Translations under genes and position numbers: made by a program
Shown: positions 6,801 to 54,056 of the stretch, one piece after another
Layout: each line of letters opens with the position of its first letter
Position numbering within the stretch: the stretch's first letter is position 1
Notes under the pieces: generated by a model
Databases searched by the model: none
Seen by the model: only the letters and a program-made list of their open reading frames with translations
Told to the model about the DNA's origin: nothing
Source of the DNA: a virus
Reading direction: 5' to 3' (one strand)
DNA length: 64,000 bases
IMG/VR virus record: IMGVR_UViG_3300028840_006907
Location: 405,618-469,617 of that record

Positions 6801-7903
6801 TAGATGATATTGTAATCACAGATGCCATTTATATTGACAGTGCTTCTGGTTTCCCCTTTATCGAAGGTAATGTCATTGAAATTGTGGGTATGGCATTGGC
6901 AGCTACCGGTAATTCTTATACCAGAAATGGTGCAAGTGTTAATTTTACTCAGGGTGAGAAAAAAATAAGCCCATTTGCTTATTCATCTCGTTTAAAAATA
7001 ACTTCATTTCCTCCTGGGTCTATATCAAGTGTTCAGTTTACTAGCCTCGATGCTGATAGTGGTCAAATCTCCACAGCTTCTGGGGTATTTCTTGGTATAA
7101 GTACAACAGAAACTGTGAATAGTTTAACTGATCATTTTGCTTGGGTTGATGTTGGAGCGGGAGATGTTCTTACTCCAGTAACAGTGACAGGATTTAATAC
7201 CACGACTTTAACAGTAAATTTCGCTACTCCTATATCACCAACTAGTGTCAAGATACAGGCTTTAATAAAACAGGCTAATTTAATTTATGGCACTGATGCT
7301 GATGATGGATTACAGATAGCTTATAATTTTATTCCGAGTCAAACTCCTACAAATCTTCCTTCCAGTTTAATAGTAGGGATGGTTACTAATCCTACAAGTA
7401 TTTATATATCAAATTTAGGTACTGGAGGCAGTCTTGTAGATAAGGAACCTTATAGTTTCCCTATTGATAGTATCCCTGTAAATAATAGCTCTATTATTGA
7501 TGATAATGAATTTTATAATTTAGATCTATTTAGATTTTCTAATTTCTCAGTAGATAGTGGGTTTGTTCAGATGCCTACTATTGTTCCTGGTTCTTTTGGG
7601 GAAGAGTTAACTTTTTCAAGTTTAACTACTGATGAGTTGTTACGTACTTTTTATAGTACATGTGATACAGAATTTGCCTTCAGAACAGAAGGTATAAAAA
7701 TTGGAATACCGAGAAAGATATTTATCGCTACTATAGGAAGAGTAAAAGAGAACTCTACTCAATTATTACGAGGTGAATATGTTCTTATAATAATTTCCAG
7801 AGATAGCCTTACTGATTTAGAAAATTACACAGGTTGTGAAACAGGAAGTGGTAATGTTATCGGGATCTACCGATTACCGAATAAGCCATTGGTAAGAAAG
7901 TAA
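3827..7903 (+). CDS. giant putative structural protein with embedded BNR/Asp-box beta-propeller (1358 aa); paralogue of 13823..16876
   Basis: AAGGAG RBS upstream; seven S/T-x-D-G-G-x-x-W-like repeats (GGQTWS, GGVTWL, GVNWS, GGSNWI, GGLSWV, GANWN, GGTTWT); shared blocks with the 13823 ORF (VVFQKQKPPL, LEVWR, RVQIQYKIR, YAWAIPMF, DILDVRR). Confidence 0.7.
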   Translation: MAENLGTGVSFVDESNGYNYDKVVFQKQKPPLDTELNLAQEIQNLLAKRHIKGMPSGWLNIEDFYTSSLLENQFYTQDPDTAIPEYAVVNGMVLYVTNTGTSETNSNLITLTDPPTSGNLVNGVILEVWRALLDTETDNNRPDSTVVIDSLMAIDAVTENSAWTVGENGLILATENGGQTWSVQLIDTKKKLNDVHFINTTVGWVAGDNGAIGRTSSGGVTWLVLQSGYTENFNGIHAATHLIAWVAGDGGIILKTVNGVNWSAQNSNVTANLNDIYFYDSLVGWAVGDNGTIIKTTDGGSNWITLTSGTTENLNAVFFYDLNFGFAVGDNGTILRSSDGGLSWVDQSGNIYTGSGYTSLSVNYTDVTMAPSLDIHVTNEEVTSQFTGSNKNCTVVNVPMTKGDGLGTTTNSPADVDGEGNLSTVVTVNGTSVLIDSIDGTTGQIILNQAPQACDTVLVSYWHKVSPDIFTGRAWITGASGTVLMSPDIGANWNQQTPNTSYDLNGVSFVDQNKGWVAGAFSVMRHTEDGGTTWTTQISDTVSRRVQRVYNEGNVDTVIFLDDEMIHPDTNIETTKRVQIQYKIRVIENVDPFSYPDAGLGSAGIVALGPNATGSFAYQNMGSTTGDYGLWQAKCSNTVDGYAWAIPMFFVNRRNSTTFNAANNTNGSNAKGTSNIRPDLLTGVDVVDQDILDVRRQIFIPSVTELLNSSFDALMNNQLKTRFFRQTTGGDSYSVEPLQLDYIAHGSGTEIDATLSEAVSGQVTSITTTSTISQSVPASTSLPFDVTLSIPVGTRGLFHPNSIYYTARYVSNSATYDGKPIPGEFTGIGTNSVTFNFSAKVNTTNEDTNLVSYDIVAHYVIFSPKSLSKIPSTPQLVENTGTVSEPSFFYRGVFTSETSGRKIEEWDSGISGYPSYTLAYPVIEAGSTAQEARASSIEVHLYIRLTSTEIQSINQIKISQEVYPDVADTTSYYNLYCVSEINNITSGFSFKIDDIVITDAIYIDSASGFPFIEGNVIEIVGMALAATGNSYTRNGASVNFTQGEKKISPFAYSSRLKITSFPPGSISSVQFTSLDADSGQISTASGVFLGISTTETVNSLTDHFAWVDVGAGDVLTPVTVTGFNTTTLTVNFATPISPTSVKIQALIKQANLIYGTDADDGLQIAYNFIPSQTPTNLPSSLIVGMVTNPTSIYISNLGTGGSLVDKEPYSFPIDSIPVNNSSIIDDNEFYNLDLFRFSNFSVDSGFVQMPTIVPGSFGEELTFSSLTTDELLRTFYSTCDTEFAFRTEGIKIGIPRKIFIATIGRVKENSTQLLRGEYVLIIISRDSLTDLENYTGCETGSGNVIGIYRLPNKPLVRK
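4270..5460 (+). other. BNR (Asp-box) beta-propeller-like domain inserted in the 3827..7903 protein
   Basis: Seven Asp-box-like repeats spaced about 40-60 aa apart; region absent from the paralogue 13823..16876. Boundaries approximate. Confidence 0.55.
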
Positions 7904-22472: not shown

Positions 22473-25400
22473 ATGGCACCAAAAAAACAATTTGTAAACA
22501 CAGGATTTATGGAATTTGTGGAGGATACTGTTCAAACCAGAATAGCCGAAATGCCATGGATGGCTGATCGTACGTTTAAATTAGCCAAGAGCATGGAAGA
22601 AGTGGAAAATTACATTGATAGGGCGATAGAAGCGAAAAGATGTGCCCTTGATTTGGAAACGACAGGACTTAATACAAGGGTAAAAAAAGTAGATGGTAAA
22701 ATTGTTCCTATTGGTAAAATAGTAGGTTTTGCTTTATGTTATGATCCGAAAGTGGCCATTTATATCCCTATTAATCATAGAGAAGGGATAGAATTTAATC
22801 TTCCAGAAGAGGCTGTTTTAAAGGAGATAAAACGTCTTTGTTATAATTGTATTACAATATACCATAATGCTAAATTCGATTTAACTTATTTAAAGAATTA
22901 CGGTATTGTTCTTGATAATCATAATCAATTCGAAGATACACTTTTGCTGGCGTATTTGCATGATTCAGGAAGAAAAGCCAATAAATTAAAGGATCTCTCT
23001 CCAGAATTACTTGATCAACCAATGTTAAAATTTAATGAGGTTGCCAAAGAAGGTCATTTTGATCTTGTCTCCCCTGATGTGGGGTATACATATGGAGCCT
23101 CTGATGCTATGTGTACTATGGATTTATATATCTTTTTTACGGAACAGGAAATTATAAAGAGTCAACAGATGATATATAACTTAGAGAAACGGGTTGTATT
23201 TGTTATGATGGATATGGAAGCAAATCTAATAAAAATTGATGTTCCATATCTCAAGGACTTAAAAACAAAAGTTGAAAACCGTATAGAAGATATTAAAAAA
23301 GAGATACATCAATTGGTCGGTTATGAATTTAATTTGGGAAGTTCACAGAAATTAGGTAAAATACTATTCGATGATTTGAAATATAAATATCCAGAGAAAA
23401 CAAAAACCAAATCTGGGCAATACAGCACTGATAGTAAAACCTTAAATAAAATAGCTGACCTTTACCCCATTGTTAAGAAGATCATAAATTTCCGTGGATT
23501 GGAAAAAGTTTTATCGACATATATTAATAATCTTTTGAACAACCACGATGAAGAAGGTTTTGTAAAACTTCAATTTAAACAGACTGGAACTGATACCGGA
23601 AGATTTTCGAGTCCTGGTGGTCAGGGTATTCATATAGATGGGTCTTCAGGAGTTAATGTCCAGAGTATTCCAAAGATGCCTAGTGAGGATAATCCTGACA
23701 TTGATATGAGAAGGGCGTTTATTGCTCGTCCTGGTAAAACGATGGTAGCGATTGACTATGCAAATGAAGAGATGCGGGTAGCTACAAATATTTCGAATGA
23801 GACTGCCTGGATTGAATCGATTCATAAAGGAATTGATTTCCATACTGCTACAGGTGCTATTATCTCGGGAAAAGATCCTAAGGATGTATTAAAAAGTGAG
23901 AGGAAAATAGGAAAGACAGTTAATTTTTTGGCCCTTTATTTAGGAGGCCCATTTACTCTTGCAGGTAATGCTAAAATAACTGTACCGGAGGCCAAAAAGA
24001 TTCTAGCCACATTTTTTGCAGGAGTTCCTAAACTGAAGAAATGGATTGACCGGGTGATCGTGGTAGCTAGAAAAGAGAAATTTGTTAAAACTATTTTTGG
24101 GCGTACTAGACCGTTAAATAAGTACTATGATAGTGGGGATAAGGGATTGGCTGCTCATGCAGATCGATGTGCAGTTAATACAAAAATTCAAGGTTGCCTT
24201 TGTCAAGAAGAGCGCTGTTTAACAACAGAAGGTTATTTATCTATTATAAAAATCAAAAAGTTAAAGGAATCAGGCCAAAATTTAAAAATATGGACTGGGG
24301 TTTCATGGGAGGATTTTGAAGTATTGGATCGTGGAGAGGCTCAATTAGCGATAATTGAATTAAAAAATGGAATGATTCTTCATTGTGATACACGGCATGA
24401 AGTATTAACAGTAAATAATGAAAGATATGAATTTAAAAAATTTAATGAATTAACAGAAGATACTAATATATGTATATCTCGCCCTCAATTATTAAAATTT
24501 GGGAGTTATCCTGAGGAAATTATTTTTGAGGGAAATGTATGGAATGCACAGAAATTGAAAGTGAGTACGGCAGAGGAGTGGGATTTTATAGCCTATTTAT
24601 TAGGATGTGTTATTGGAGATGGCTCAATATACATTGATAAAAAGGCATCTAAATATGTTATAACATTAAATTTTGGTGAAGAAAAGATAAGAAGAATATT
24701 TCCTGATCTTAAGAGAAAATTAAATGATCTCGGATTAAATATTTCGGAACCTGTTTTAAATAAAGGTAGTAAAGGTATTTGTTATAAAACGAGTATCTGT
24801 TCCGTTACTTTAACAAAACTTTTTGGAGAAATGGGTTATCATTTTCATGATGCTCGTGATAAGAGAATCCCTCAACGAATTATGGAATCCCCTATAAAAA
24901 TGAGACAATCATTTTTACGAGGTTATTTTGATACAGATGGATGTAAGAAAGAGGCCAATAAATATGGTTTCCATACTCCTAATAAAGATCTATTGAGAGA
25001 TATTCAATTATTAGCTTGGACCCTAGGATGTCCCTCTACTATTTATGATTGTGGTGATGGCTCATCCATATTTAATTGGATGAATTATCGAATTTTTGCG
25101 GAATTAATGGACTTAACTTATAAAAAAGAAGAGAGAAAATGTAACACACAAAATATGCCTTTACCTGATTTTTTAAGAGAGCCTATATTAAATTCTTTAG
25201 GGAATTGTTATGTAAAAAATGGGAATGATCGCTCATATGTATGTAAAGTTAGGAAGGGTAAAAATGTTAGTTTACCTGGAATAGTGTCATTATTAGAAAG
25301 TTATAATTGTGAACTACCGGAAATTTATTATCATTCCAAATTAGAAAAGAAAAGAGTTTTAAGTAAAAAAGAAGTTACATACACTTTATCAGTAAAATCT

Positions 25401-26261
25401 CCTTTACATCGGTTTGATTCTGCTGGAATTATAAGTAAAAATACTTCGGCGGATATTATGAAGGCTGTCATGGCCCGGATGAACTCCTGGCTCACGAGAA
25501 ATAATCTGCATGATGATATAAAAATATTGATTACCATGCATGATGAATTGGTTTTTGAGATTACAACTGAAAAATTGCAGATACTGGTACCAGAGATTTG
25601 TAAGATCATGCAGTTGAATGATATTATTCAGGGTCAATTGAAATGGCCCATTCCTTTGGAAGTTGATATACAGTATGGTGATACTTGGAGAGTTAAAGGT
25701 GATTTTCTTAAGGATTTTCCTGATTTGAGGAATAAATTAAGTGAGCCTTTAATGGAATTTGAATCTTTACAGAAGATAAAAGATGATGTGCCAAAAGATA
25801 AAAATGATGAACCTCCGGTGGAAAGTAATAAAATTGAAGAAGAAAATTCAGAGAAAGATTCAAATGAGGTACCAGATAACCAGATTATAGAGGAAAAAAC
25901 TCCTTCTGAAATACAAGATATAGAAAAGTCTGAACAACATGATGTACCTAAAGATAAGGAGGTTTTGGAGAAAGTTGATAGTGGTACTGTAGATAGTAGT
26001 AAAATATCAGAAAAAAAAACTCTAAACGGCGGTGATATATCGGGTCAATATTTGATTTATACTCTGCGAGAATTGAGTACGATAAGTTCACGATGGTTGA
26101 ATGATATTTTGGTTTTTTTGAATGATGAGGGCAATCGATATGAAGAGAAAGATAAAAAAATTTTAAAAATCCGTGACAGATCAGGGAACTCTTTATTAGT
26201 TTCAGAGTATAAAGTACACCCTGAAAGTTTTTCCCTTTTGGCAAGATTTTTTGGGATATGA
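22473..26261 (+). CDS. family A DNA polymerase with 3'-5' exonuclease domain, interrupted by an intein, plus C-terminal extension (1262 aa precursor)
   Basis: Exo motif ALDLETTGL; Pol I motifs DYANEEMRVA (A), RKIGKTVNFLALYLGG (B), NTKIQG/TSADIMKAV split by the insert, ITMHDELVFE (C). Confidence 0.9.
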   Translation: MAPKKQFVNTGFMEFVEDTVQTRIAEMPWMADRTFKLAKSMEEVENYIDRAIEAKRCALDLETTGLNTRVKKVDGKIVPIGKIVGFALCYDPKVAIYIPINHREGIEFNLPEEAVLKEIKRLCYNCITIYHNAKFDLTYLKNYGIVLDNHNQFEDTLLLAYLHDSGRKANKLKDLSPELLDQPMLKFNEVAKEGHFDLVSPDVGYTYGASDAMCTMDLYIFFTEQEIIKSQQMIYNLEKRVVFVMMDMEANLIKIDVPYLKDLKTKVENRIEDIKKEIHQLVGYEFNLGSSQKLGKILFDDLKYKYPEKTKTKSGQYSTDSKTLNKIADLYPIVKKIINFRGLEKVLSTYINNLLNNHDEEGFVKLQFKQTGTDTGRFSSPGGQGIHIDGSSGVNVQSIPKMPSEDNPDIDMRRAFIARPGKTMVAIDYANEEMRVATNISNETAWIESIHKGIDFHTATGAIISGKDPKDVLKSERKIGKTVNFLALYLGGPFTLAGNAKITVPEAKKILATFFAGVPKLKKWIDRVIVVARKEKFVKTIFGRTRPLNKYYDSGDKGLAAHADRCAVNTKIQGCLCQEERCLTTEGYLSIIKIKKLKESGQNLKIWTGVSWEDFEVLDRGEAQLAIIELKNGMILHCDTRHEVLTVNNERYEFKKFNELTEDTNICISRPQLLKFGSYPEEIIFEGNVWNAQKLKVSTAEEWDFIAYLLGCVIGDGSIYIDKKASKYVITLNFGEEKIRRIFPDLKRKLNDLGLNISEPVLNKGSKGICYKTSICSVTLTKLFGEMGYHFHDARDKRIPQRIMESPIKMRQSFLRGYFDTDGCKKEANKYGFHTPNKDLLRDIQLLAWTLGCPSTIYDCGDGSSIFNWMNYRIFAELMDLTYKKEERKCNTQNMPLPDFLREPILNSLGNCYVKNGNDRSYVCKVRKGKNVSLPGIVSLLESYNCELPEIYYHSKLEKKRVLSKKEVTYTLSVKSPLHRFDSAGIISKNTSADIMKAVMARMNSWLTRNNLHDDIKILITMHDELVFEITTEKLQILVPEICKIMQLNDIIQGQLKWPIPLEVDIQYGDTWRVKGDFLKDFPDLRNKLSEPLMEFESLQKIKDDVPKDKNDEPPVESNKIEEENSEKDSNEVPDNQIIEEKTPSEIQDIEKSEQHDVPKDKEVLEKVDSGTVDSSKISEKKTLNGGDISGQYLIYTLRELSTISSRWLNDILVFLNDEGNRYEEKDKKILKIRDRSGNSLLVSEYKVHPESFSLLARFFGI
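24195..25442 (+). mobile_element. intein with LAGLIDADG homing-endonuclease domain, inserted in the polymerase (about 416 aa)
   Basis: Insert begins with Cys after KIQG and ends with Asn before TSADIM; LAGLIDADG-like motifs LLGCVIGDGSIYID and FLRGYFDTDG; N-terminal boundary ambiguous by about 21 nt. Confidence 0.7.
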
Positions 26262-26511: not shown

Positions 26512-27273
26512 ATGCTACCTACTAATGATATTGCTGTCTTTGCCCAAAAAAATGATGCAGAATTTCGTGCTCTAGTCCGAAAACAGTGCGAGTATCTTGA
26601 TTATCCTGGTTCACCTGATGATGTTGTCCAAGAGCTTTATGTGAAGTTCTTAACAAAAAAGAAAATCATTGAAGCTTATGATCCCAGTTATAATGTACAA
26701 ATATCTTCTTACCTTTTTAAAATTATCCGTAATTTTATAATCACCAGAGTGAAAAGTCACGATGGTCGATTTCGTCGGTGCCGTGTTTTAACCCCTTCTC
26801 CTACTGATGATACTAACGAGTTCGATCTTATTCCCGCTTATTATGATGTTTCAGATGATTTCTACGACAATCAATATTTTAACAATAATTCTTTTATGGA
26901 AGAATTCAGCGATTTTGAGCGTCAGTTTTCAAAATCACCTCAGAACATAAAATTTAAGTTACGAAAGAGACAACATAAAAATACTTCTCTCAATTTTTTA
27001 AAAATATTGGAACGTCTTCAAAAGCGTGGTAAAATCGGTGAAGAATTTAATGAAATCAAGGATTTAATCACAGAGATAGAAGAAAACGGGTGTACTCTAT
27101 TGGACCTTTTCCGACTTCTGTATAAGGGATACAACAATAAAATGATCGCTCGGATTTATGGAGTATCAACAACTACAATAAGTGCTATGAAAAGCAAATT
27201 AGCAAAAGCCATGATTAAATACGGTATAAAGTATGATCGAGCTACGGTGTCCAAAGTGTCAATCCAAAGTTGA
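26512..27273 (+). CDS. putative sigma-70/ECF-like sigma factor (253 aa)
   Basis: Region-2-like VVQELYVKFLTKKKIIEAYDPSYNVQISSYLFKIIRNFII and region-4-like HTH KMIARIYGVSTTTISAMKSKLAKA. Confidence 0.5.
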   Translation: MLPTNDIAVFAQKNDAEFRALVRKQCEYLDYPGSPDDVVQELYVKFLTKKKIIEAYDPSYNVQISSYLFKIIRNFIITRVKSHDGRFRRCRVLTPSPTDDTNEFDLIPAYYDVSDDFYDNQYFNNNSFMEEFSDFERQFSKSPQNIKFKLRKRQHKNTSLNFLKILERLQKRGKIGEEFNEIKDLITEIEENGCTLLDLFRLLYKGYNNKMIARIYGVSTTTISAMKSKLAKAMIKYGIKYDRATVSKVSIQS

Positions 27274-27482: not shown

Positions 27483-27746
27483 TTGAATATAAACCAAGTT
27501 TTTATACTTTTGCTAGGTGCTTTGGCAATTTGGTTTTTAAGTCGAAAGGAACGGTGGAGTCGGTGGGGTTTTATTATCGGTATGATCAGTCAACCTTTCT
27601 GGCTTATTGAATCTTTTCAAAACAAACAATGGGGATTTTTTTGTTTAAGTATCTGGTACACGTATAGTTGGGCACAAGGGATTTGGAACTATTGGATAAA
27701 GGGTAACAATGAAAACAAAAAAGAAAAAGAAAAACAACAAGAATAA
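27483..27746 (+). CDS. small Trp-rich membrane protein (87 aa), TTG start
   Basis: AGGAGG RBS 12 nt upstream of TTG; two hydrophobic segments; 38-nt overlap with the next gene. Confidence 0.4.
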   Translation: MNINQVFILLLGALAIWFLSRKERWSRWGFIIGMISQPFWLIESFQNKQWGFFCLSIWYTYSWAQGIWNYWIKGNNENKKEKEKQQE

Positions 27747-28512
27747 GCAAAAACCTAATTCTATTTCTGTGAAGTCAGAAACAGATAAAGTTTTGATATC
27801 AGAATCAGTTCCTGAAATTACTACTGATATAATAATTCTCCTTTATGGAGATCGAAAATATCTAGATGTATGTGTTGCATCCGTTGAAGAGCACTGTAAT
27901 AATTATGTCTTGCATATAATTGATAACAATGAAGTCAATAGAGGTTTTACCAAGGGTGTAAATGAAGGTATTCTTGCCGGTAGTGCTCCCTATGTTTGGT
28001 TACTTAATCAGGATGCTGTGGTTCTTAAGGGAGCACAACAGGCTCTTATAGATCGATTTTCTTATGGGGAAAAAGTCGGGATTGTTGGATCTATGCAGAT
28101 AGATCACGATGATCCTGATATTATTCGTCATGGAGGAACTATTCAGGCGTTCCCCAATGGAATCCATAAGGGGGGAAGAATCTCTATGGGGCATTGTAGA
28201 GTTCCTGAGAAATCCACCTGGATTAATTTTGCCTCAGCAATGCTGAGAAGGGAAATGATTCAACATATAGGACTATTGGATGAAAATATGTTTTTGATAT
28301 GCTCAGACAGTGACTATTGCTACTGGGCGCGGTATCGGGGTTGGGAAGTCTGGTATGAACCTAGATCACAAGTCAAGCATCGTTTGGAGGCTTCATCAAA
28401 AGGTGTCTCTGAATGGCATCGGAAGGATACTCTCGCTTTTATGAATAAGTGGGGAATAAATAATTTAGGTCAGAAATCAGAATTATTTCAGAAATTAGAT
28501 ATATATCCTTAA
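27709..28512 (+). CDS. glycosyltransferase family 2 (267 aa)
   Basis: GT2-A-type blocks IIILLYGDRKYL, NQDAVV, CSDSDYCYWARYRGWEVWYEP. Confidence 0.7.
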   Translation: MKTKKKKKNNKNKQKPNSISVKSETDKVLISESVPEITTDIIILLYGDRKYLDVCVASVEEHCNNYVLHIIDNNEVNRGFTKGVNEGILAGSAPYVWLLNQDAVVLKGAQQALIDRFSYGEKVGIVGSMQIDHDDPDIIRHGGTIQAFPNGIHKGGRISMGHCRVPEKSTWINFASAMLRREMIQHIGLLDENMFLICSDSDYCYWARYRGWEVWYEPRSQVKHRLEASSKGVSEWHRKDTLAFMNKWGINNLGQKSELFQKLDIYP

Positions 28513-44245: not shown

Positions 44246-45076
44246 ATGATCAGTATCTTTGACTATACTAGCTATAAAGATTTTATTTCCGATTACTATA
44301 AAGAGCAAAAACAATTAAATCCGAAATTTTCATATCAGTATTTTGCTGATAAGGCTGGTTTCCGGACTAAAACTTTCATACCCAAAGTTATTAGTGGAGA
44401 AAAAAAACTAGCTCAACGTAGCACCCATATGATTACTAAAGCTATGGAACTGAATAAAAGAGAGGAAAAATATTTCATAGCTCTGGTTAATTTTAATAAT
44501 TCTAAGAATATCGATGAAAAAGAATATCAATTCTACCAATTACAATCACTTGGTAAGAAGTCAAAAAAATTTCAAACTTTAAAAAATGAGTTTGATTACT
44601 TCTCTAAATGGTATCATGTTGTTATTTATGAATTATTGGCATTTTATGATTGGAAAAATGATTATAAGATTTTAGCAAAAGCAGTAGATCCTCCTATAAC
44701 CGAAGTCCAGGCACGGAAAGCGGTAACTTTATTAAAAGAATTGGGACTTATAAAAAAGGGATCATCGGGTAAATATGTGCATTGTAAATCTATTGTTATT
44801 AGTGATGAATTAAGAGAATTAGCTTTTAAGAAATTTCACAAACAAGTATTAGAATTGGGTCAAAATGCCCTTTTTAAAGGGATTGAAAATCAAGAACTTA
44901 CTACAATTACAAATAGAGTTTCTATAAAAGCATTATCCTTAATAAAAGCTGAAATGAAAAATCTTCAGATAAAAATAGCTGAAATTATAGATGAGGATCA
45001 AGTACCTACCAATGGGGTATTCCATTTGAATTTGCAATTATTTCCAGTATCAAAAACAGAAAAGGAAAAGAAATGA
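44246..45076 (+). CDS. hypothetical protein resembling the TIGR02147 (Fibrobacter-type paralogous) family, possible DNA-binding (276 aa)
   Basis: Blocks IFDYTSYKDFISDYYKEQKQLNPKFSYQYFADKAGF, YFSKWYHVVIYELL, HLNLQLFPVSK match the family as I recall it; unverified. Confidence 0.5.
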   Translation: MISIFDYTSYKDFISDYYKEQKQLNPKFSYQYFADKAGFRTKTFIPKVISGEKKLAQRSTHMITKAMELNKREEKYFIALVNFNNSKNIDEKEYQFYQLQSLGKKSKKFQTLKNEFDYFSKWYHVVIYELLAFYDWKNDYKILAKAVDPPITEVQARKAVTLLKELGLIKKGSSGKYVHCKSIVISDELRELAFKKFHKQVLELGQNALFKGIENQELTTITNRVSIKALSLIKAEMKNLQIKIAEIIDEDQVPTNGVFHLNLQLFPVSKTEKEKK

Positions 45077-45693: not shown

Positions 45694-48600
45694 TTATGGT
45701 GAATTCCTATAAATGGCATATATTGAGTAGACATAATTTGATACAGTACTACTTCCGAAGTGATTTGGCATTCCATCAGACCACGATGATCCATTAACCA
45801 AAGCTCTTCCTGAATCATGTTCTTCATACCGTACTTCTGTAGCATTTTCAAATACCCATGCTAACCAGATCTTAGTTCCTGCTAAAATATTTACCGGTGT
45901 TGTTAAACTGATTGTTTGCCATCCTTCATTTGAATTTACATTTGTTTGAGGAGTGATGCCTAATAAGTTCTCAGGAACGTTATCTCCATCATATACAGCC
46001 AAAATAAGGTTGCCGGTACCACCACCATGGTAAATGGCTATACTGTCTATATAGTCATTATATGGCATTGTGAAAGGCATCGCACGTCTTGGGGTAGTTG
46101 TTACTTTCTTCGGAAAAATGGTTGTGTACCCTATTGTTGGAGCAACATGAGCCACGGCAGATCCCGGCACAGACCAATGAGTAATATTATAAGCTCTTCT
46201 AGGACTGTTATCTATTGCTCTTACCCTATAAGTACAGAGATTAGGATTATAAATTCCAGTATCAACGTAAATAGGGCTTTCTTGCCATTTGCTATTATGG
46301 CATGGTCCTCCAATACATTCAAAATGATATTCAACTCCATTCTCATCTGTGGCTTCAACAGCTTCCATCATTATAGAATTATGTCCCATAATTACCGGAG
46401 CAACTTCCCAGGATAAAGGGTTTGGTTGTGGTGGGGAATAATCGGGTTGTGGATTTGATCTTAATTCAAAAGGAGCCATACGAGTTTTATTCCCAGTTCT
46501 AAGATATATTCCAGTAACGGCTACAGGATATAATGTATCTATTCCTGAGGTAGTTGATACATCAATTAAATCTTTTTTAAGATCAAAGTTGTAGTCATGG
46601 ATAAGAGTATCTGGGACAGCACCGATGCCAACCCGAGCTTCTTTTCCATTACTATACATTTTTTTAAATCCTTTATCATACCGAGTATCATAAGCAATAC
46701 GGCATATTGTGTTTTTATTAGTTATTACTTCTACAAAGAGTCTAAAAGGATCGAATGATGTAATATTTGTGAATCCATAAAATTGGTGAGTATTGGGTAA
46801 TGGAAATTTGAATTTATACAAAGTAGCCATACCACTATCACTGATAAATTCAGTGAAGACTCCAACTGTATTTAAGGAAGTTCCTTGTTTAGTTCCCAGT
46901 ATTTTCCATACCTTGTAATGGTCAGGATGGTTAACAGATGTGTAAGGAGTTCGATCTGTCCATAATACATCTTTTTTTGTGTCGCCTAAATGCAAACCAT
47001 AAAGGAGTATTTCTCGTTCTATTCTGAAAGATATTCCTAATACACCAATAATTTCCATTTTGGGTATACCTTCGGCTGAACAAACACTATCGAGATCTTC
47101 TTGTAAAAAGCCATAATAACTATGCCAATATACTCCAAATCGGCCATCACCTATCCCGATACGGGCATCTCGGCCTGAAACATAATGGGCTATTCTTTTT
47201 TCGGTCCAGTTTCTGGTATCATAAGCAATATCGTAGTCAATAACAGTATCATTTACAGTATCTACAACTAATACTTCGTAATACATTCTAAAATCACTGG
47301 TATAATTTTTAATACCAATATAAGAAAAGAATTGAGACACATTAGGTTCATCAAATTTGAGTTTGAAACTTGTGGCCATTCCATTAGTGGTGAGTAGTCT
47401 TGTACAATAGGTACTATCTTCATATTCATAGAATTTTGTTACGATGGCATTTGAATCATTGCCTCTTATGTCCCAATTAGCTAATACTATGCTGGTATCT
47501 CGAATATAAAATTTATCACTCATAGCATTAGTAGAGTCATGAAAAAATGTTGGTATTTCCATTTCAACGGTATCACATTTAAATCTAATTTCAATAAGTC
47601 GGGTGATTCTTTTGGGAACTTTTCTTAATGCTACAGCAATTTCATTTAAAGAGTGTTGTAAATGATGATTTACTCTTTTCCATGATCCATCATTATGTGG
47701 GCCTATACCATAGCGCAATTCACCATTTTTACTGATATATTTATCCCGATGCCGAGTATCAAAAACTAGAAGGATTGTGTCATTGTCTTTTGTTTCCAAA
47801 TAATGAGTGATTCTGTAATGTCCCCATGATTTTAATCTATAATGGGCATCTAAATAAGGGGCATGCATATCGAGGTTAAAAGAGTCATTCATGAATAGTT
47901 TCCATCCTACATTGAGATTCCCTTCTAATCTGATTAACATATCCATAAAAGTATTTCCAATATTTACTTTATCGGTATCACTTTGAAGGATAGTATATTT
48001 GGTTCCCCGAGCTGAAGTGTAATTTCTCCAATCGCCATATTGTCTTATATCTTTGTAAAAATCCATTGTAATTATATCAGAGATCCCAGACATAGACCCG
48101 TTGTCTAATCCAATTACACTATAAGTTGAAATTAGCGATTGATTTATATTTCGATCTACATAGAATGTATCAGATATAGTATCAATAGGACTTGTGTCTT
48201 TATATACTATATATTGGCTTGTAGGGATACTATTCCAACGAAGCATAGCTGAATCTCTATCAGCTTGAATAACTATTAAATTTTTAGGGTATATTTGGGA
48301 AATATCTGTCTGGGTACAAGTAGCATCATAACATACTTGAAAATTATCAATATTAAATTGAAGAAGACTATCTCGGCAAAAGTGGGTTATACCATATATT
48401 TCTAAAGCTGAAATTAAATTGAGATTTTCAGCGAAACTTATAACTCTGAGAGGAGATTCCTGTTCCCAGCCATTGGCAATTGCTTCACTATCTGACCAAG
48501 TAGGATCTAATTTGACACTTAAGTGGGACCAGGAGTTAATTTTAAAATCTTCTCTTGTAAATATTTTTTTCCATGCTTTATTAATATTGCATCTTAATCT

Positions 48601-49824
48601 GACTTCGAAAAAATTCATATCAGGTGTTTTGATGTCGAAATTGATTCCGGTGATATTATTACAAGCTAAATTACCTGTATATCTTTTATCGACAGATACT
48701 CCGATTTCATCATGTCTGATATTGTTTGATTTCACTTTTAATGAGGCTCCAGGGTTTCCTTTATCTATGTCATATGAAATAGAGGATCGAAGGCTTTTCC
48801 AATTACTTAAATTATCGCTATTATTCCATTCTTCTTTAAAGGCTTGTCTATCACAATCAGTTGTATCTATTTCATAAAAATTAACTGTATCTCTTTTTGC
48901 TGGCATCAAGATTTTAATCCATCTGACTTGATACTTCTCTAATACGTCAAGAGAGACTTGTTTTACTTCCATTCCTAAACAGTCTACTTTATATACGTTA
49001 TATTCATCTATGGAAATATCTCCTTCTCTAAAACTGTAGTCAGCATTAGCATTAAGAATAGGTAAATAGTTCCATACATCATTTTTATCTTTAACAAGAG
49101 CCATTACATCGGCGAGTTGACCGTCATGGAGATAAAGGGTATCGGTTGAGGGTAATTTTTTCATATAGAAATAAATAACAGATGAATTTGCCTGTGTTAA
49201 TTCAGGGCTTATTAAACTGGTGCTAGTAGTATCCCATTGTTCACTGGAATAATTGCAGGAAGGCCCGAAATCATATTTATACAGAGTGGAATAGAATACT
49301 GAAGTATTTAACCAGGATCGGGGTGATTTGAAACCAGGATTAGGGAGTATTATTAAAGTATCTTGAAGTTGAATAATTACGGGAAAATCTAATCCTATGG
49401 TACTGAATCTGATTTTAGATCCATCTGCAGTAGCAATGGGGTGGCCTTTCTCAATCCATTGGCCCTCAGTGACAAATATGTCCTTTAATAGATTGTAAAG
49501 ACCATAGTAATATGATTCAGTATCATTTTTATCATAGAAGTGTTTAACAATCACTACAAGATATTCATATCCTAACTTTTTTCTTAGACTATCTGTTAAA
49601 GCCATATCGACTTGCCCATAGCCAACAGAGTATACAGTATCACCATTTTCAGTACTGAAATAAAATTCTTCGTCTAAACCGAATCCATCTTTCCAGTCTG
49701 TACTTCTGTACCAACCATCTCCATCGATAGCAACATTTTTTAAAAGATATGATATTTCATCCGCTTGAATAGCCAACCCTGTGAGGAACAGGTTAATAAT
49801 TATGATTAATAGATATTTCAACAC
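45694..49824 (-). CDS. giant secreted protein (1376 aa), function unknown
   Basis: N-terminal signal-like MLKYLLIIIINLFLTGLAIQA; single long ORF. Confidence 0.7.
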   Translation of the reverse strand: MLKYLLIIIINLFLTGLAIQADEISYLLKNVAIDGDGWYRSTDWKDGFGLDEEFYFSTENGDTVYSVGYGQVDMALTDSLRKKLGYEYLVVIVKHFYDKNDTESYYYGLYNLLKDIFVTEGQWIEKGHPIATADGSKIRFSTIGLDFPVIIQLQDTLIILPNPGFKSPRSWLNTSVFYSTLYKYDFGPSCNYSSEQWDTTSTSLISPELTQANSSVIYFYMKKLPSTDTLYLHDGQLADVMALVKDKNDVWNYLPILNANADYSFREGDISIDEYNVYKVDCLGMEVKQVSLDVLEKYQVRWIKILMPAKRDTVNFYEIDTTDCDRQAFKEEWNNSDNLSNWKSLRSSISYDIDKGNPGASLKVKSNNIRHDEIGVSVDKRYTGNLACNNITGINFDIKTPDMNFFEVRLRCNINKAWKKIFTREDFKINSWSHLSVKLDPTWSDSEAIANGWEQESPLRVISFAENLNLISALEIYGITHFCRDSLLQFNIDNFQVCYDATCTQTDISQIYPKNLIVIQADRDSAMLRWNSIPTSQYIVYKDTSPIDTISDTFYVDRNINQSLISTYSVIGLDNGSMSGISDIITMDFYKDIRQYGDWRNYTSARGTKYTILQSDTDKVNIGNTFMDMLIRLEGNLNVGWKLFMNDSFNLDMHAPYLDAHYRLKSWGHYRITHYLETKDNDTILLVFDTRHRDKYISKNGELRYGIGPHNDGSWKRVNHHLQHSLNEIAVALRKVPKRITRLIEIRFKCDTVEMEIPTFFHDSTNAMSDKFYIRDTSIVLANWDIRGNDSNAIVTKFYEYEDSTYCTRLLTTNGMATSFKLKFDEPNVSQFFSYIGIKNYTSDFRMYYEVLVVDTVNDTVIDYDIAYDTRNWTEKRIAHYVSGRDARIGIGDGRFGVYWHSYYGFLQEDLDSVCSAEGIPKMEIIGVLGISFRIEREILLYGLHLGDTKKDVLWTDRTPYTSVNHPDHYKVWKILGTKQGTSLNTVGVFTEFISDSGMATLYKFKFPLPNTHQFYGFTNITSFDPFRLFVEVITNKNTICRIAYDTRYDKGFKKMYSNGKEARVGIGAVPDTLIHDYNFDLKKDLIDVSTTSGIDTLYPVAVTGIYLRTGNKTRMAPFELRSNPQPDYSPPQPNPLSWEVAPVIMGHNSIMMEAVEATDENGVEYHFECIGGPCHNSKWQESPIYVDTGIYNPNLCTYRVRAIDNSPRRAYNITHWSVPGSAVAHVAPTIGYTTIFPKKVTTTPRRAMPFTMPYNDYIDSIAIYHGGGTGNLILAVYDGDNVPENLLGITPQTNVNSNEGWQTISLTTPVNILAGTKIWLAWVFENATEVRYEEHDSGRALVNGSSWSDGMPNHFGSSTVSNYVYSIYAIYRNSP

Positions 49825-49837
49825 TTAATACTCCTTT

Positions 49838-50860
49838 TTATAGATGATTTATATTCATTAAAATCTCGGCTAAAGAAGAGATATAGTTCTTTTCATTTAA
49901 GAAAATAGCTAGATCAATATTTAATAGCTCTTTATAATTTAGTACTTTTATATTTGTTATGGTATTAAGATTTTCAATTCTATTTTTTAGTATAGTTACA
50001 TTTTTTTCTAACTCTATTAATCGTTTTTTTAATATTACCTGTATTTTTTTATATTTATCTTTCAGTTGTTCAATTCGAACAAGATATGATTGAAAATTTT
50101 CTTTTCTCCAGTCATCTCGATAAATAATAGCTTCTCTATTATATTTATTCTGAAAGAAACGTCCAAATTTAAAATGAATCATTAATTGACCTAGAGGATT
50201 AATGATTATTTCTTTGTTCTCATATTGTACATTTACTCCTCCTGAAGTAGTAATTGCCCAGGCATAGGATTTTCTTAGGTTTGCAGAATGAATCTCTACT
50301 TCTCTATCATAGATAATGAAATGTGTCACTAATCTTTCTATTTTTATATTACGCGGTTTTGGTAATTGCCTGAGTCTTTCTATTTCTAAATTGGTCTCAA
50401 GTTCGATAAGGTTCAGTTTTTCGAGTTTATTCTCAAAGCTATATAAAACATCTAGTGTAACTAATTCTTTCTTTAATAGGAATTCAAGGGAAATTAATTT
50501 TTTGGTGACTGTATCTTTTAATTGAATAATATTTTTGAGTTTTGTTTCAAGAAGAGCAAGTTTCCCTATATCTGTACCAATAGTGAGTACTTTATCGAGT
50601 TCTTGACAGACTTCATATAAATGGCATTCGGCTTCAGTTCTCTTTCCAATTATAATGCCTTTATATAGATTGATAAAATTATACGTTAATTCTATATTTC
50701 CTTCTTGGCTATCTGTATTTACACCATGAATCAATAGTTCTGGGGTTAATAACAAGATTCTTTCTGAATTCTTTGTGGCAGTAAGCCATCTAGAATAAGG
50801 TAATTCACTGTAGACCGAGATTAAAAAAGTTATTAGAAGTATCTGTACTTTTATTAACAT
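49838..50860 (-). CDS. secreted hypothetical protein (340 aa)
   Basis: N-terminal hydrophobic signal-like segment; co-directional and tightly spaced. Confidence 0.55.
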   Translation of the reverse strand: MLIKVQILLITFLISVYSELPYSRWLTATKNSERILLLTPELLIHGVNTDSQEGNIELTYNFINLYKGIIIGKRTEAECHLYEVCQELDKVLTIGTDIGKLALLETKLKNIIQLKDTVTKKLISLEFLLKKELVTLDVLYSFENKLEKLNLIELETNLEIERLRQLPKPRNIKIERLVTHFIIYDREVEIHSANLRKSYAWAITTSGGVNVQYENKEIIINPLGQLMIHFKFGRFFQNKYNREAIIYRDDWRKENFQSYLVRIEQLKDKYKKIQVILKKRLIELEKNVTILKNRIENLNTITNIKVLNYKELLNIDLAIFLNEKNYISSLAEILMNINHL

Positions 50861-50869
50861 CTTATATCC

Positions 50870-51970
50870 TTACAGAATGAAAAAAGGCTTCGTTCCAACA
50901 TGTAATGATTTTGCTTTAGCCCAATCCATGTCCTTATCTTTCATATCAATAATAACCATCATACCTCTTAATTCTTTGTTGAATACAGGATGTTTTGCAA
51001 TAATTTCTCCTTCAAGGACTTCTTTAACAACAGCGATTTTTTTACATAGAAATAAACCCAGGTAACACCCATAGATAGGATCGTTGACTTTTATATTTCG
51101 AATATTTGAATATGGAGCAAATGCTACAATTACACTCTTATTTATAGCTTTAAAATATGGGGATTGCTCTAATTTTTCACAGATTTCATTGTAACCTTCA
51201 AGAGAGCTATCAATTATCTCTGATTCTAAATTTAACATATCTATTTCATTTTCCAACCCATTGACATCTTGATTTAATATAAGATATTCCTGTTCTATAA
51301 TGAGGACATCATAAATGGGTTCTGCTTTATATTTTGTATCTGTTTTTTTTATTTTATTATTGAATGATTCTAATGAAGAGATGCTTTTTATTAATCTATT
51401 TTTTTCTAATTTTAATTGTTCTTCTTTTTGTTTAAATGTCGCTAAATTCCTGATATTCTGATCTATACTGAATTTATTGCGATTATATGTCTGTCTATCT
51501 ATGATACCAGCAGAAATTAAAGAACTGATATTAGCTAACTCTGATCTTGAATAAGCTCCATTCGCGGTGAATTCGATATCATCATGTTCTTTAAGGGCTT
51601 CAGAAATCAGATCTAATTTCTGTCTCATCATTTTAAGATCGCTTTTAAAAGCCAGTTCAAACCTTTTTTGCAGATCTTTTTTTACTTTGACTTCTTCTTT
51701 GAGCAGTCTTATTTTAGACTGCAGTCTGAGTTTTTCTACCATTGTTTTATTATAGAGAAACTTCTGTTGTATATGTTGGGAGTTTAATTTAACTACCTGT
51801 TCAGAGTGCGGGGATAAAATAATAGGAATCACCCATCTTTTATCAATAATATAAAAAAGAGATCCTGTAAGGTATCCAAGTATTCCTACACAGATAGCTG
51901 CCAAAGTTATGAATCCGATTATTTTATATATAGAAAGAAATAACCAGTTTAAGCTTGTTTTAATATTCAT
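50870..51970 (-). CDS. membrane-anchored coiled-coil protein, HlyD/membrane-fusion-like (366 aa)
   Basis: N-terminal TM helix, long heptad-like charged region, C-terminal beta-rich segment; architecture only. Confidence 0.45.
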   Translation of the reverse strand: MNIKTSLNWLFLSIYKIIGFITLAAICVGILGYLTGSLFYIIDKRWVIPIILSPHSEQVVKLNSQHIQQKFLYNKTMVEKLRLQSKIRLLKEEVKVKKDLQKRFELAFKSDLKMMRQKLDLISEALKEHDDIEFTANGAYSRSELANISSLISAGIIDRQTYNRNKFSIDQNIRNLATFKQKEEQLKLEKNRLIKSISSLESFNNKIKKTDTKYKAEPIYDVLIIEQEYLILNQDVNGLENEIDMLNLESEIIDSSLEGYNEICEKLEQSPYFKAINKSVIVAFAPYSNIRNIKVNDPIYGCYLGLFLCKKIAVVKEVLEGEIIAKHPVFNKELRGMMVIIDMKDKDMDWAKAKSLHVGTKPFFIL

Positions 51971-52000
51971 AAGGTCAAGTTATTAAATTTTCTATCCTTT

Positions 52001-53182
52001 CTATCGAGTCTCCCAGCTCCCGGAATCAAGAGTAAAAAGAGCTAGTGGTGTTAAAATCAAATATGTGACTGGCATTATTATAGCAATTGTGAGAAAAGCT
52101 AAAGGAAATTTAGCTTTTTTATTTATGGGAAGATTACGTGTGTCTATTGTATAAATAATTACGAATATGAATAGTAATAAAATATGAAACATTGCAAATT
52201 CAAAGAAATATCCGGACATGGATGTCTGTATAAGAATCATGGGATAGGATAAAAGCATAGCAAAAAGTCCAAGATAATGGATACTTACAATTGGATTGAT
52301 TTTCCATATATGAGATAACCCGCAGAAAAAATCGATTAAATTAGATCTTCTCCATCGTAATTGTTGCAGTATATATTGATCTAAGTTCTCAGGGACTTTT
52401 GTATATGAATGAGCATCAAGAGTAAGAAAGGTTTTATAGCCAGCTTTAATTATTTGTCTTGTTAAGAATCGATCTTCACCGTATTTAATTGGAAGCCCGA
52501 AGAAATTCCTTTTTAGTAAAATATCTTCAAGTTCAATTAATACTTTAGTTCGATAAGCTGTTAAACATCCTGATAAGCACATAACACTGAAAAAAGATCT
52601 CTCTAAATTTTTTAAATGTTTATAACTGTAATAATATTTTACTGTCTGCATTTGGGTGAGCCAATTAACATTGTTGTTAACCACATCGACTCTCCCACCA
52701 ACTGCAACTATGTCTTCTTTAGTGAAACGTCTAATAAGGCGAGAAATTGCATGTTTATCTAAAATTACATCAGAATCAATTGAAATAACAAATTCTGTTT
52801 TACAACGACGTACAGCATTGATAATACTTTTTCTTTTTCCTACATTATTTTTATTTCGAAATATTTGTGCATTAGGGTATTTAACAATTTCTTTTTTGGC
52901 TATTTCATAACTATTATCGGTAGAACAATCATCAATAACCATGACATGTAAATTCTCTTTTGGATAAACTTGTTCAGAGAAGCTACGGATAGTTTTGGCT
53001 ATACTACCACCTTCATTGTACAAGGGAACAATAATAGTTATGGGAGGATGAAAATTTTCTTTGATCTCAGATAAAGCTTTTTTATTTAAATTAAGATAAA
53101 ATCTTCCGAAGATATATCTATTAACAAAAACAACGAAAATGAGTAGATGTGCAATTATTAAGAGAATGCCAAATAAATCCAC
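52001..53182 (-). CDS. processive family-2 glycosyltransferase, polysaccharide-synthase-like (393 aa)
   Basis: GT2 blocks ITIIVPLYNEGGSI, VMVIDDCSTDNS, ISIDSDVIL, GEDRFLT and QxxRW motif QQLRWRRS; N- and C-terminal TM helices. Confidence 0.8.
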   Translation of the reverse strand: MDLFGILLIIAHLLIFVVFVNRYIFGRFYLNLNKKALSEIKENFHPPITIIVPLYNEGGSIAKTIRSFSEQVYPKENLHVMVIDDCSTDNSYEIAKKEIVKYPNAQIFRNKNNVGKRKSIINAVRRCKTEFVISIDSDVILDKHAISRLIRRFTKEDIVAVGGRVDVVNNNVNWLTQMQTVKYYYSYKHLKNLERSFFSVMCLSGCLTAYRTKVLIELEDILLKRNFFGLPIKYGEDRFLTRQIIKAGYKTFLTLDAHSYTKVPENLDQYILQQLRWRRSNLIDFFCGLSHIWKINPIVSIHYLGLFAMLLSYPMILIQTSMSGYFFEFAMFHILLLFIFVIIYTIDTRNLPINKKAKFPLAFLTIAIIMPVTYLILTPLALFTLDSGSWETR

Positions 53183-53199: not shown

Positions 53200-53637
53200 T
53201 CATTCAAATACTGTTTTATATTTTAGTCCTGCTTTTCTTACATATTCATATAATTTAAAATCATCTGATTCTATAAGAACATGGTCTTCACTGCGTGGTC
53301 CTGGCTTATATATTATTTTTGAAAATTGATCTTTATCCATCATAATGATAATATCAATAGCACTATCAATATTTTTATACCTTTCAGGTGGTACTGGGAA
53401 ATCTTTATATTTTTCAGGTTTTAAAGGATATCCATCCGTAACTCTCTTACCAGGCCAGATTCCTAAAAGGTAAACTATTTTACGAGTAGTTATTATTTTC
53501 TTCAATTCATAACGATTATAGGCCATTATTGATTCACTCATAAGAGGGTCATCGTTATCTTCTCTTAATACAGTACAAATAATAGGTGTATGGATAGAGA
53601 TAGGAAATCCGCCATCTTCAAAATCAGTTATTAACAT
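53200..53637 (-). CDS. hypothetical protein (145 aa)
   Basis: Track ORF; start overlaps the stop of the MaoC gene. Confidence 0.5.
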   Translation of the reverse strand: MLITDFEDGGFPISIHTPIICTVLREDNDDPLMSESIMAYNRYELKKIITTRKIVYLLGIWPGKRVTDGYPLKPEKYKDFPVPPERYKNIDSAIDIIIMMDKDQFSKIIYKPGPRSEDHVLIESDDFKLYEYVRKAGLKYKTVFE

Positions 53638-54056
53638 TATTCCTCCTTTGGTGCTTTAACAATAGCTTCACCTTTAATAAGTATGGTCCCTGTATTACTT
53701 TTATTATCATTAATACAATATGTATTTAATGTAATAATTGGTTTATCTTTTCGTATATGTATAATTTTGACTACAAATAATACTTGTTCACCTATAAATA
53801 CGGGTTTTAAAAAATTTAAATTTTGGCCTAAATAAATAGAACCTTTGCCTGGTAATTTGCTCCCGATTAATCCGGAAAAGAAGCTGGCAGCAAACATTCC
53901 AGGGACAACAGGTCTCCCGAAAATAGACTTTTCTGCATATTTTTTGTCAGTGTGAATCGGATTATCATCATGTATGAGTCCACTATAATAAAGAACTTCA
54001 TGTTCGGTGAAAGTATGGCGTATAGTGGCAATGTCATTAATATTAAACTTCATCAA
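53637..54056 (-). CDS. MaoC-like hotdog-fold dehydratase (139 aa)
   Basis: LIHDDNPIHTDKKYAEKSIFGRPVVPGMF and LPGKGSIYLGQNLNFLKPVFIGEQV match the MaoC/R-hydratase signature. Confidence 0.7.
   Translation of the reverse strand: MMKFNINDIATIRHTFTEHEVLYYSGLIHDDNPIHTDKKYAEKSIFGRPVVPGMFAASFFSGLIGSKLPGKGSIYLGQNLNFLKPVFIGEQVLFVVKIIHIRKDKPIITLNTYCINDNKSNTGTILIKGEAIVKAPKEE

Follow-up and report, generated by a model that had tools for sequence, protein, structure and literature searches.

Background

Can a phage bring with it both the enzyme that makes a surface polysaccharide and the proteins that take the chain across the envelope of its host? This question is raised by a block of four genes at positions 45694-53182 of a 64,000-nucleotide stretch of viral DNA, hereafter the window, which forms the last 64 kb of the 469,617-bp IMG/VR record IMGVR_UViG_3300028840_006907 (JAEORW010000001.1, assembly GCA_016840655.1; window coordinate = record coordinate - 405,617). 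The block comprises a membrane glycosyltransferase of family 2 (GT2; 52001-53182, 393 aa), P2 (50870-51970, 366 aa), P3 (49838-50860, 340 aa) and P4 (45694-49824, 1376 aa). An original prediction, made from the sequence alone, had described four co-directional leftward open reading frames (ORFs) here, and all four were found at exactly these positions on the minus strand. Its interpretation is supported as well, with refinements to the clade of the synthase, the type of export system and the role of the 340-aa protein. We consider it fairly likely that this phage operon makes an N-acetylglucosamine (GlcNAc)-containing polymer, which is extruded via a P2-P3 conduit onto the infected cell, with P4 at the surface. 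The kind of system, tripartite synthase-dependent export, is known; a phage as its carrier is unprecedented, and the bacterial cassette made up of the first three genes is uncharacterised.

The genes are closely packed, with intergenic gaps of 30, 9 and 13 nt (GT2-P2, P2-P3 and P3-P4, respectively), and Shine-Dalgarno-like sequences were recognized upstream of GT2, P3 and P4, that is, three of the four. A 145-aa ORF (53200-53637, minus strand), located 17 nt upstream of GT2, is part of the same co-directional run and has no Pfam, NCBIfam or PHROG match. Scanning for promoters and terminators gave counts no higher than chance.

Identity of the glycosyltransferase

The GT2 protein matched PF00535 Glycos_transf_2 (1.6e-31), PF13641 Glyco_tranf_2_3 (3.9e-28) and PF03142 Chitin_synth_2 (2.8e-17), all over the Pfam cut-offs. 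Its top NCBIfam model was NodC (TIGR04242), matched end to end (residues 36-393 against 38-394 of 395), and because the score of 173.5 bits lies under the 550-bit cut-off the protein was not classed as NodC. Scores against the PgaC model (93.8 bits, cut-off 422) and the BcsA model (45.9 bits, cut-off 992) were also far under their cut-offs, and identity as a cellulose or poly-N-acetylglucosamine (PNAG) synthase was therefore rejected.

The motifs were examined in an alignment of 26 homologues with 51-69% identity. Invariant among them were D84-D85-C86-S87, which holds the first UDP-binding aspartates (52922-52933), the DxD motif D136-S-D138 (52769-52777), G235-E-D-R238 in the catalytic base region (52469-52480), and the QxxRW motif Q273-Q-L-R-W277 (52352-52366) followed by R279-S-N, all on the minus strand. 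The C-terminal W390-E-T-R393 (52004-52015, minus strand) was likewise invariant and corresponds, in variant form, to the WGT(R/S) motif of hyaluronan synthases (HAS) and chitin synthases (CHS), with E in place of the HAS-type G throughout the family. Upon comparison of a profile of the family with the PDB, the best match was Xenopus HAS1 (8smm, 6e-34), followed by Chlorella virus HAS (7sp7, 1.8e-25) and then a chitin synthase (6e-10). The profile aligned with the solved hyaluronan synthases across the catalytic and C-terminal membrane regions, pairing DSD with DSD, GEDR with GDDR, QQLRW with QQTRW, and W-E-T-R with W-G-T-S-G-R of Xenopus HAS1 or W-G-T-R of Chlorella virus HAS, whereas the cellulose synthase match was confined to the N-terminal half of the catalytic domain. 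Hydropathy analysis placed one helix at the N-terminus (2-20) and three at the C-terminus (298-316, 325-343 and 359-377). No PilZ or other cyclic di-GMP (c-di-GMP) receptor domain was found by the Pfam scan, and the protein stops at W-E-T-R.

Based on the family matches, the invariant motifs, the alignments with HAS structures and the helix layout, GT2 can be assigned with high confidence to the HAS/CHS/NodC clade of membrane GT2s. The membrane GT2 with QxxRW and flanking transmembrane (TM) helices of the original prediction was thus recovered, and the catalytic D, DxD, ED and QxxRW residues, whose loss was to count against it, are all present, conserved in all 26 homologues and aligned with those of solved HAS. 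Its comparison with cellulose, PNAG or hyaluronan-type systems holds for the last of these and not for the first two.

Adaptor-like protein P2

P2 has no Pfam, NCBIfam or PHROG annotation. It carries a single N-terminal TM helix (residues 17-35/41) followed by long helices; with one TM helix, not two, a Wzz-type co-polymerase was rejected. A word-index search yielded 3, then 12 relatives of P2. The AlphaFold2 model, built with 12 diverse relatives (mean pLDDT 82.1), begins with a TM helix (2-42) and continues through a short strand (47-52) and four long helices (57-269) to a C-terminal beta domain (282-358); the protein would be anchored in the inner membrane, with the long helices in the periplasm. 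When this model was searched against the PDB with Foldseek, the sole hit at E<=1e-3 was EmrA (4tko, 1.2e-6), with 353 aligned columns that include the beta domain. EmrA as part of the EmrAB-TolC pump and HlyD came next, with MacA as a weak match. The TM-scores of these matches are low (0.22), as is to be expected with long flexible hairpins. P2 is thus predicted to have the architecture of a membrane fusion protein (MFP), or adaptor, and on the strength of the model an adaptor-like function is probable. At the level of sequence P2 is not demonstrably a member of the HlyD family, so that of the HlyD-like TM plus coiled-coil protein proposed originally the TM helix, the long helices and, in the model, a fold resembling EmrA were found, and the sequence family was not.

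The bacterial homologues of P2 introduced below carry a cytoplasmic N-terminal extension of 60-100 residues with a conserved S-D-I-R-E-L-x-P motif. The phage versions do not have it and may thereby have lost a handle for regulation.

Candidate outer-membrane factor P3

P3 has a signal-peptide-like N-terminus without a lipobox cysteine, and the N-terminus of P4 is signal-peptide-like too, in agreement with the earlier description of the 340-aa and 1376-aa proteins as secreted. Neither NCBIfam nor PHROG provided an annotation for P3. Members of the P3 family were scanned singly against Pfam, and 12 of the 33 matched OEP (PF02321) weakly (best E 5.6e-6), while each of the other families was matched by at most 3 members; the P2 family, which is similarly rich in coiled coils, gave no recurrent family match when scanned in the same way. 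One member, from Archangium (L062), exceeded the Pfam OEP cut-off (24.8 bits vs 22), with residues 208-354 aligned to OEP 14-169, and in a member from Acidobacteriaceae (L042) residues 103-165 aligned to OEP 118-180. Because the matches fall in two different halves of the OEP model, they suggest two OEP-like repeats in a compact protein. We regard it as reasonably likely that P3 is a distant, shortened member of the TolC/OEP outer-membrane factors and a putative channel; it is also the weakest link of the model.

Several results weigh against a conduit of P2 and P3. P3 of the window itself has no match to OEP or any other Pfam family, and its single-sequence AlphaFold model is of low confidence (pLDDT 39.9). 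No HlyD/MFP-family sequence model, Biotin_lipoyl_2 families included, matched P2 (E<=0.1) or any of 36 relatives (E<=1). Alignment by hhalign of the P2 family with E. coli EmrA alone and of the P3 family with E. coli TolC alone was not significant, and against profiles of EmrA/MdtN/CusB and TolC/CusC/MdtP, respectively, the scores were no better than those of crossed controls, which makes these profile comparisons uninformative. Searches of PDB sequences with the P2 and P3 family profiles returned coiled-coil noise only. P2 and P3 might instead be periplasmic coiled-coil regulators, localisers or scaffolds of the synthase (of BcsB or Alg44 type), the polymer crossing by way of a host component or staying periplasmic or capsular. 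We judge this improbable, since EmrA is the only strong Foldseek match of P2 and covers its full length with the beta domain, since the OEP signal seen in the P3 family has no counterpart in the P2 family, and since P3 has a signal-peptide-like N-terminus and the three genes are strictly linked across phyla. Assembly of P2 and P3 into one export conduit with GT2 is accordingly the reading retained here.

The homologues of P3 possess a nearly invariant cysteine, probably paired with the invariant C79, at a position where P3 of the window has a serine (residue 23); the window protein would therefore lack this disulfide.

The three-gene cassette in bacteria

A total of 2376 proteins matched GT2 at E<=1e-10, among them an identical GT2 and relatives with 51-56% identity. 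Relatives occur in 434 GTDB species representatives (one genome per species was scanned), and the best 80 of the 434 are almost all from Myxococcota, including Sorangium cellulosum, Kofleriaceae, Polyangiaceae, Labilithrix, Archangium, Vitiosangium, Pyxidicoccus and Citreicoccus, with some from Acidobacteriota. Linkage was counted in 84 loci, 80 of them bacterial, whose ORFs were searched first with the window proteins and afterwards with profiles. In 80 of the 84 loci GT2 is adjoined by a homologue of P2, and in 71 there is one of P3; a 2.4-Mb Myxococcota contig, for instance, encodes P2 and P3 with 37% (3e-91) and 30% (1e-41) identity to those of the window. GT2-P2-P3 is, on these counts, a widespread conserved bacterial three-gene cassette. 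It is apparently uncharacterised, as no paper describing it was found in the literature search. In Kofleriaceae, P2 and P3 are divergent from GT2 instead of downstream.

Predicted product

The neighbours of the bacterial cassettes give clues to the substrate. A PIG-L family GlcNAc de-N-acetylase (Pfam 2e-14) is encoded in 39 of the 80 bacterial loci (e.g., L019:14594-15643) and GlmS in 10; in L003 and L004 a Polysacc_deac_1 protein fused to heparinase II/III domains and a sulfatase adjoin the trio, and another locus has a TIG-Polysacc_deac_1 protein. None of these accessory enzymes (deacetylases, GlmS, heparinase II/III, sulfatase) is encoded by the block itself. Because of these enzymes and the clade of GT2, the predicted product is a GlcNAc-containing polymer, an assignment that we consider fairly likely. 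The polymer may be chitin- or chitosan-like, and glycosaminoglycan-like where lyase-like genes occur.

Two points speak against this reading. Within the operon no c-di-GMP-binding domain was found, and the scanned window ORFs include no sugar-nucleotide gene; furthermore, GT2 has a short four-helix NodC-like architecture, so that short oligosaccharides instead of a polymer are possible. According to such an explanation, GT2 would be a NodC-like oligosaccharide synthase and P2 and P3 would export short chito-oligosaccharides as signals or small surface decorations, perhaps deacetylated or modified. NodC has one N-terminal and three C-terminal helices, and rhizobial NodC and GT2 share size, the QQLRW motif and this topology (393 aa in GT2), as well as the end-to-end match to the top NCBIfam model; the deacetylases beside the bacterial homologues also recall NodB beside NodC. 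A gene for a MaoC-type (R)-specific enoyl-CoA hydratase/dehydratase (53637-54056, minus strand) belongs to the co-directional run as well, as the second gene upstream of GT2, and could be counted on the same side, but it is absent from the related contig L085 and hence is probably not a member of the cassette. The NodC score is less than the cut-off by the wide difference given above, the best PDB match of the GT2 profile is a polymer-forming HAS, with the C-terminal W-x-T-R region included, no NodA, NodB or NodIJ homologue is present in the block, where GT2 is linked to adaptor- and OEP-like genes, and export through a trans-envelope conduit of its own is more typical of a polymer. An oligosaccharide product is thus unlikely in our estimation, and a GlcNAc-containing polymer is taken as the product in what follows.

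Viral context and copies in phages

Left of the block lie genes for Baseplate_J, a BNR-repeat fibre, proteins with tail-fibre and virion-structural PHROG matches, SNF2 and DnaB-like helicases, an AAA ATPase, a sigma-like factor and a family-A DNA polymerase (PolA) that contains a LAGLIDADG insertion. In IMG/VR, 15 relatives of the baseplate protein were found (56-87% identity), and the same protein occurs on seven contigs, six of them in the 0.2-1 Mb class and one a 388,651-bp JGI contig; the replication genes are syntenic in a 75.8-kb uncultivated viral genome of IMG/VR. To the right (53-64 kb) there are only small ORFs without family matches, several of which recur in the same order in L085. 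The block and its two flanks share a GC content of 0.23 at third codon positions (GC3), with correlations of 0.88-0.92 for codon usage and 0.97 for tetranucleotides. No tRNA was found in the window and no integrase boundary was seen. Given the flanking phage genes, the syntenic right flank and the uniform composition, the block lies inside phage-like DNA with no visible host junction.

The possibility has to be considered that the block is cellular DNA, whether host chromosome beside a prophage, part of a mis-joined metagenomic contig or a bacterial island near phage genes. The trio is overwhelmingly bacterial, as seen in the 434 GTDB species, and searches of IMG/VR and of GenBank phages turned up no copy. 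The right flank shows no phage hallmark before the contig ends at 64000, and a gene of the TIGR02147 family, typical of bacteria, abuts the block. It also weighs against a phage location that no capsid or terminase gene occurs within the 64-kb window and that the contig ends 11 kb past the block; as the 64 kb read are part of 469,617 bp, this leaves residual doubt. However, the block shares codon usage, GC3 and tetranucleotides with the structural and replication genes, ORFans without Pfam matches and not housekeeping genes make up the right flank, the same flank genes and cassette order are found in L085 and L086, the same sequence is present on several 0.2-1 Mb contigs from different samples, and neither a tRNA nor an integrase marks a border. 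A cellular origin of the block DNA is therefore quite unlikely, and its location in phage DNA is very probable. The viral context claimed by the original prediction is upheld by the IMG/VR relatives of the baseplate, replication and vault-like proteins, and a host chromosome at a prophage end, which it had named as the outcome that would overturn it, has no visible junction in the window.

Contigs L085 and L086 are short and of low GC (0.29-0.30) and keep the order 145-aa ORF-GT2-P2-P3-P4. Of the encoded proteins, GT2 is 69% identical to that of the window, P2 59%, P3 48%, the 145-aa ORF 45.5% and P4, at its start, 42%, and homologues of the ORFs at 56.4-58.0 kb of the window are likewise found on both contigs. 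In L087, a third contig of low GC, numerous small ORFs without annotation come after the trio. In a neighbour-joining GT2 tree, the window, L085 and L087 form one clade next to a group of Myxococcota metagenome-assembled genomes. Between the window and L085, dN/dS was 0.11-0.28 for all five genes (about 0.28 for the 145-aa ORF), which indicates purifying selection, though the values are rough because dS is near saturation. From the conserved order in L085 and L086, the copy in L087, the GT2 clade and the dN/dS values, the cassette looks like an old, maintained accessory module of bacterial origin in one branch of a phage lineage.

Elsewhere in viruses, the IMG/VR search gave no relative of the GT2 subfamily; GenBank phages yielded only GT2s with <31% identity and no DNA match, a metagenome scan gave GT2s with <=34% identity among the matches listed, and BFVD contained no adaptor-like viral protein. 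As far as these searches extend, the cassette is rare among known phages, with no other phage example found outside the lineage of the window.

P4, a giant secreted protein of the phage versions

Three domain-like stretches were recognized in P4, all encoded on the minus strand. Residues 56-136 (49417-49659) matched Pfam Peptidase_M23 with 27.3 bits, under the 28.7 cut-off; upon reading of the sequence, this M23/LytM-like domain lacks the HxxxD and HxH histidines and is probably non-catalytic. An FN3-like domain at residues ~1110-1200 (46225-46497) is the matching stretch in almost all of the 1583 library hits to P4, and residues 1256-1318 (45871-46059) matched DUF4082 with 18.7 bits, under the 28.4 cut-off. 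The relatives are large secreted proteins rich in FN3/Ig domains (Pfam fn3, Ig-like) with varied extra domains, and what they have in common with P4 is mainly one FN3-like domain. Self-BLAST revealed no significant internal repeats. A glycoside hydrolase or lyase role was rejected, as no such domain was found by Pfam scans in P4 or its relatives.

Among the 84 loci, P4 was found in the window only and is absent from the 80 bacterial ones. A homologue (42% identity over the N-terminus) follows P3 in L085 and L086. Because it stands after P3 in these two contigs and in none of the bacterial loci, P4 is considered an addition specific to the phage versions.

Proposed mechanism and comparison with known systems

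The carrier would be a huge phage (contigs of 0.39-0.47 Mb) of a low-GC diderm bacterium, with the operon serving as an accessory, self-contained system of polysaccharide synthesis and export. At the inner membrane, GT2 would use UDP-sugars to build a beta-linked chain that contains GlcNAc and would be chitin-like or, with an alternating uronic acid, hyaluronan/heparosan-like. The enzyme would act as both synthase and inner-membrane translocase by threading the chain via its own transmembrane region. P2, anchored beside GT2, would span the periplasm with its long helices and dock on the TolC-like P3, so that the chain exits through one continuous conduit as proposed for BgsA-BgsB-TolC and XcsA-XcsB-TolC. 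The FN3-rich, phage-specific P4 is likely to act at the surface, where it would bind or organise polymer or cell wall. For the phage, the likely gain from the resulting coat on the infected cell would be receptor masking, clumping or protection.

Among bacterial systems, the mixed-linkage beta-glucan of Sinorhizobium meliloti is made by the GT2 BgsA, for which a single complex with the HlyD-type adaptor BgsB and TolC has been proposed, TolC being genetically required (PMC13438883). The cassette resembles it in having an inner-membrane processive GT2 gene beside an adaptor gene, a TolC-type partner and a proposed tripartite trans-envelope complex; the GT2-adaptor linkage of the BgsAB/XcsAB type is seen in the window as adjacency across the 30-nt gap, as in the great majority of the loci counted above. 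The differences are considerable. BgsA makes a glucan and has a C-terminus that binds c-di-GMP, whereas the GT2 of the cassette belongs to another clade and has no regulatory domain after W-E-T-R; a HlyD domain can be recognised in BgsB, whereas no sequence family is matched by P2; and TolC of the BgsAB system is a housekeeping protein encoded elsewhere in a bacterium, whereas the cassette has a small dedicated OEP-like gene within an operon that is here phage-borne. For extracellular cellulose of cyanobacteria, an XcsA-XcsB-TolC model has been put forward (Maeda et al. 2018, reviewed in PMC12430437), which is described there as still unvalidated. As outlined in that review, it likewise proposes a GT2 synthase, a HlyD-like adaptor and a TolC-like channel as a tripartite route, and it differs in the cellulose product, in the PilZ domain on the synthase and in the scattered genes of T. 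vulcanus. Unlike the Bcs, Pga and Alg systems, the four proteins of the block have no family match to TPR, BcsB, PgaB or porins (of BcsC, PgaA or AlgK/AlgE type). As a refinement, the export half appears from these family searches to be of tripartite-efflux type (adaptor plus TolC-like) and not of BcsB/BcsC or PgaA type.

Viral precedents for the synthase exist in chloroviruses, as the original prediction had mentioned for some eukaryotic viruses. Their HAS (A98R) or chitin synthase produces polymer fibres that coat infected algae early in infection, with the function of the fibres and their route through the wall being open questions and receptor masking, clumping and protection being hypotheses raised for the hyaluronan and chitin (PMC5408694). 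Like chlorovirus HAS, the phage protein is a virus-encoded GT2 of class-I HAS/CHS type, as reflected in the match of its family profile to Chlorella virus HAS. In contrast, the chlorovirus systems belong to eukaryotic viruses with algal hosts and have no export partners, while the phage brings putative parts for crossing the periplasm and the outer membrane. Phage GtrABC systems (PHROG 841 and relatives) are similar in that a phage-borne GT2 alters the host surface. GtrB makes a lipid-linked monosaccharide and is without QxxRW and the C-terminal channel helices. The GtrB PHROGs match only residues 48-167 of GT2, in its N-terminal GT-A half, and there is no GtrA- or GtrC-like neighbour; GtrB-type serotype conversion was therefore rejected for GT2. 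Another synthase-type surface-polymer gene, nfrB of E. coli K-12 (L090, 590941-593178), is annotated as a c-di-GMP-activated glycosyltransferase, and its phage connection is that of the N4 receptor.

In its widest form, which we put forward tentatively and with slightly more doubt than belief, the reading is of a huge phage with a complete portable trans-envelope machine (GT2, a new adaptor family, a mini TolC-like channel and an FN3 giant) that would wrap its host in a glycosaminoglycan- or chitin-like coat, a bacterial counterpart of the chlorovirus fibres, and of the trio as a widespread, uncharacterised exopolysaccharide class in Myxococcota and Acidobacteriota with all three envelope-spanning parts in one operon. 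If true, this would be the first phage found with both a synthase and an export route for a surface polymer, and it would extend the strategy of giant algal viruses to bacteria, as a candidate for the remodelling of infected cell surfaces by huge phages. It would also supply a compact operon with which to test the tripartite synthase-adaptor-TolC model, so far unvalidated for mixed-linkage glucan and cyanobacterial cellulose, and possibly a small gene set by which Gram-negative production strains could secrete chitin- or hyaluronan-like polymers. The uncharacterised cassette is present in hundreds of Myxococcota and Acidobacteriota species, with two of its three proteins having no family annotation.

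Other genes in the window

The gene convergent to the cassette (44246-45076, plus strand) encodes a full-length TIGR02147 family protein (1.1e-68; DUF4423) with no IMG/VR relative. This family is also found in Myxococcota- and Bdellovibrio-like bacteria and its name points to Fibrobacter; the protein may be a clue to the host. The family-A DNA polymerase (22473-26261, plus strand, 1262 aa) is split by an insertion with a LAGLIDADG_3 domain (residues ~812-877), which looks like an intein or a homing endonuclease insertion. It is followed on the plus strand by a sigma-70-like factor (Sigma70_r2 and a GerE-type helix-turn-helix; 26512-27273) and by a second GT2 (27709-28512, 267 aa; Glyco_tranf_2_3, 5e-9), which is small, soluble and unlinked to the cassette. 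A NADAR-domain protein (1.5e-51) is encoded at 34276-35112 (plus strand). The 813-aa protein at 35187-37628 (plus strand) contains the shoulder and repeat domains of major vault protein and an SPFH/Band-7 domain (MVP_shoulder, 1.4e-23) and has no PHROG match; its relatives (37-47% identity) lie on IMG/VR contigs of 146-429 kb with GC contents of 0.24-0.60, and the gene appears to be conserved among huge phages of very different kinds. Immediately following the baseplate gene is one for a 1358-aa protein (3827-7903, plus strand) that carries BNR/sialidase-type repeats (PSII_BNR, 7e-27); this protein has IMG/VR relatives with 40-57% identity and might serve as a receptor-binding fibre or as a depolymerase.

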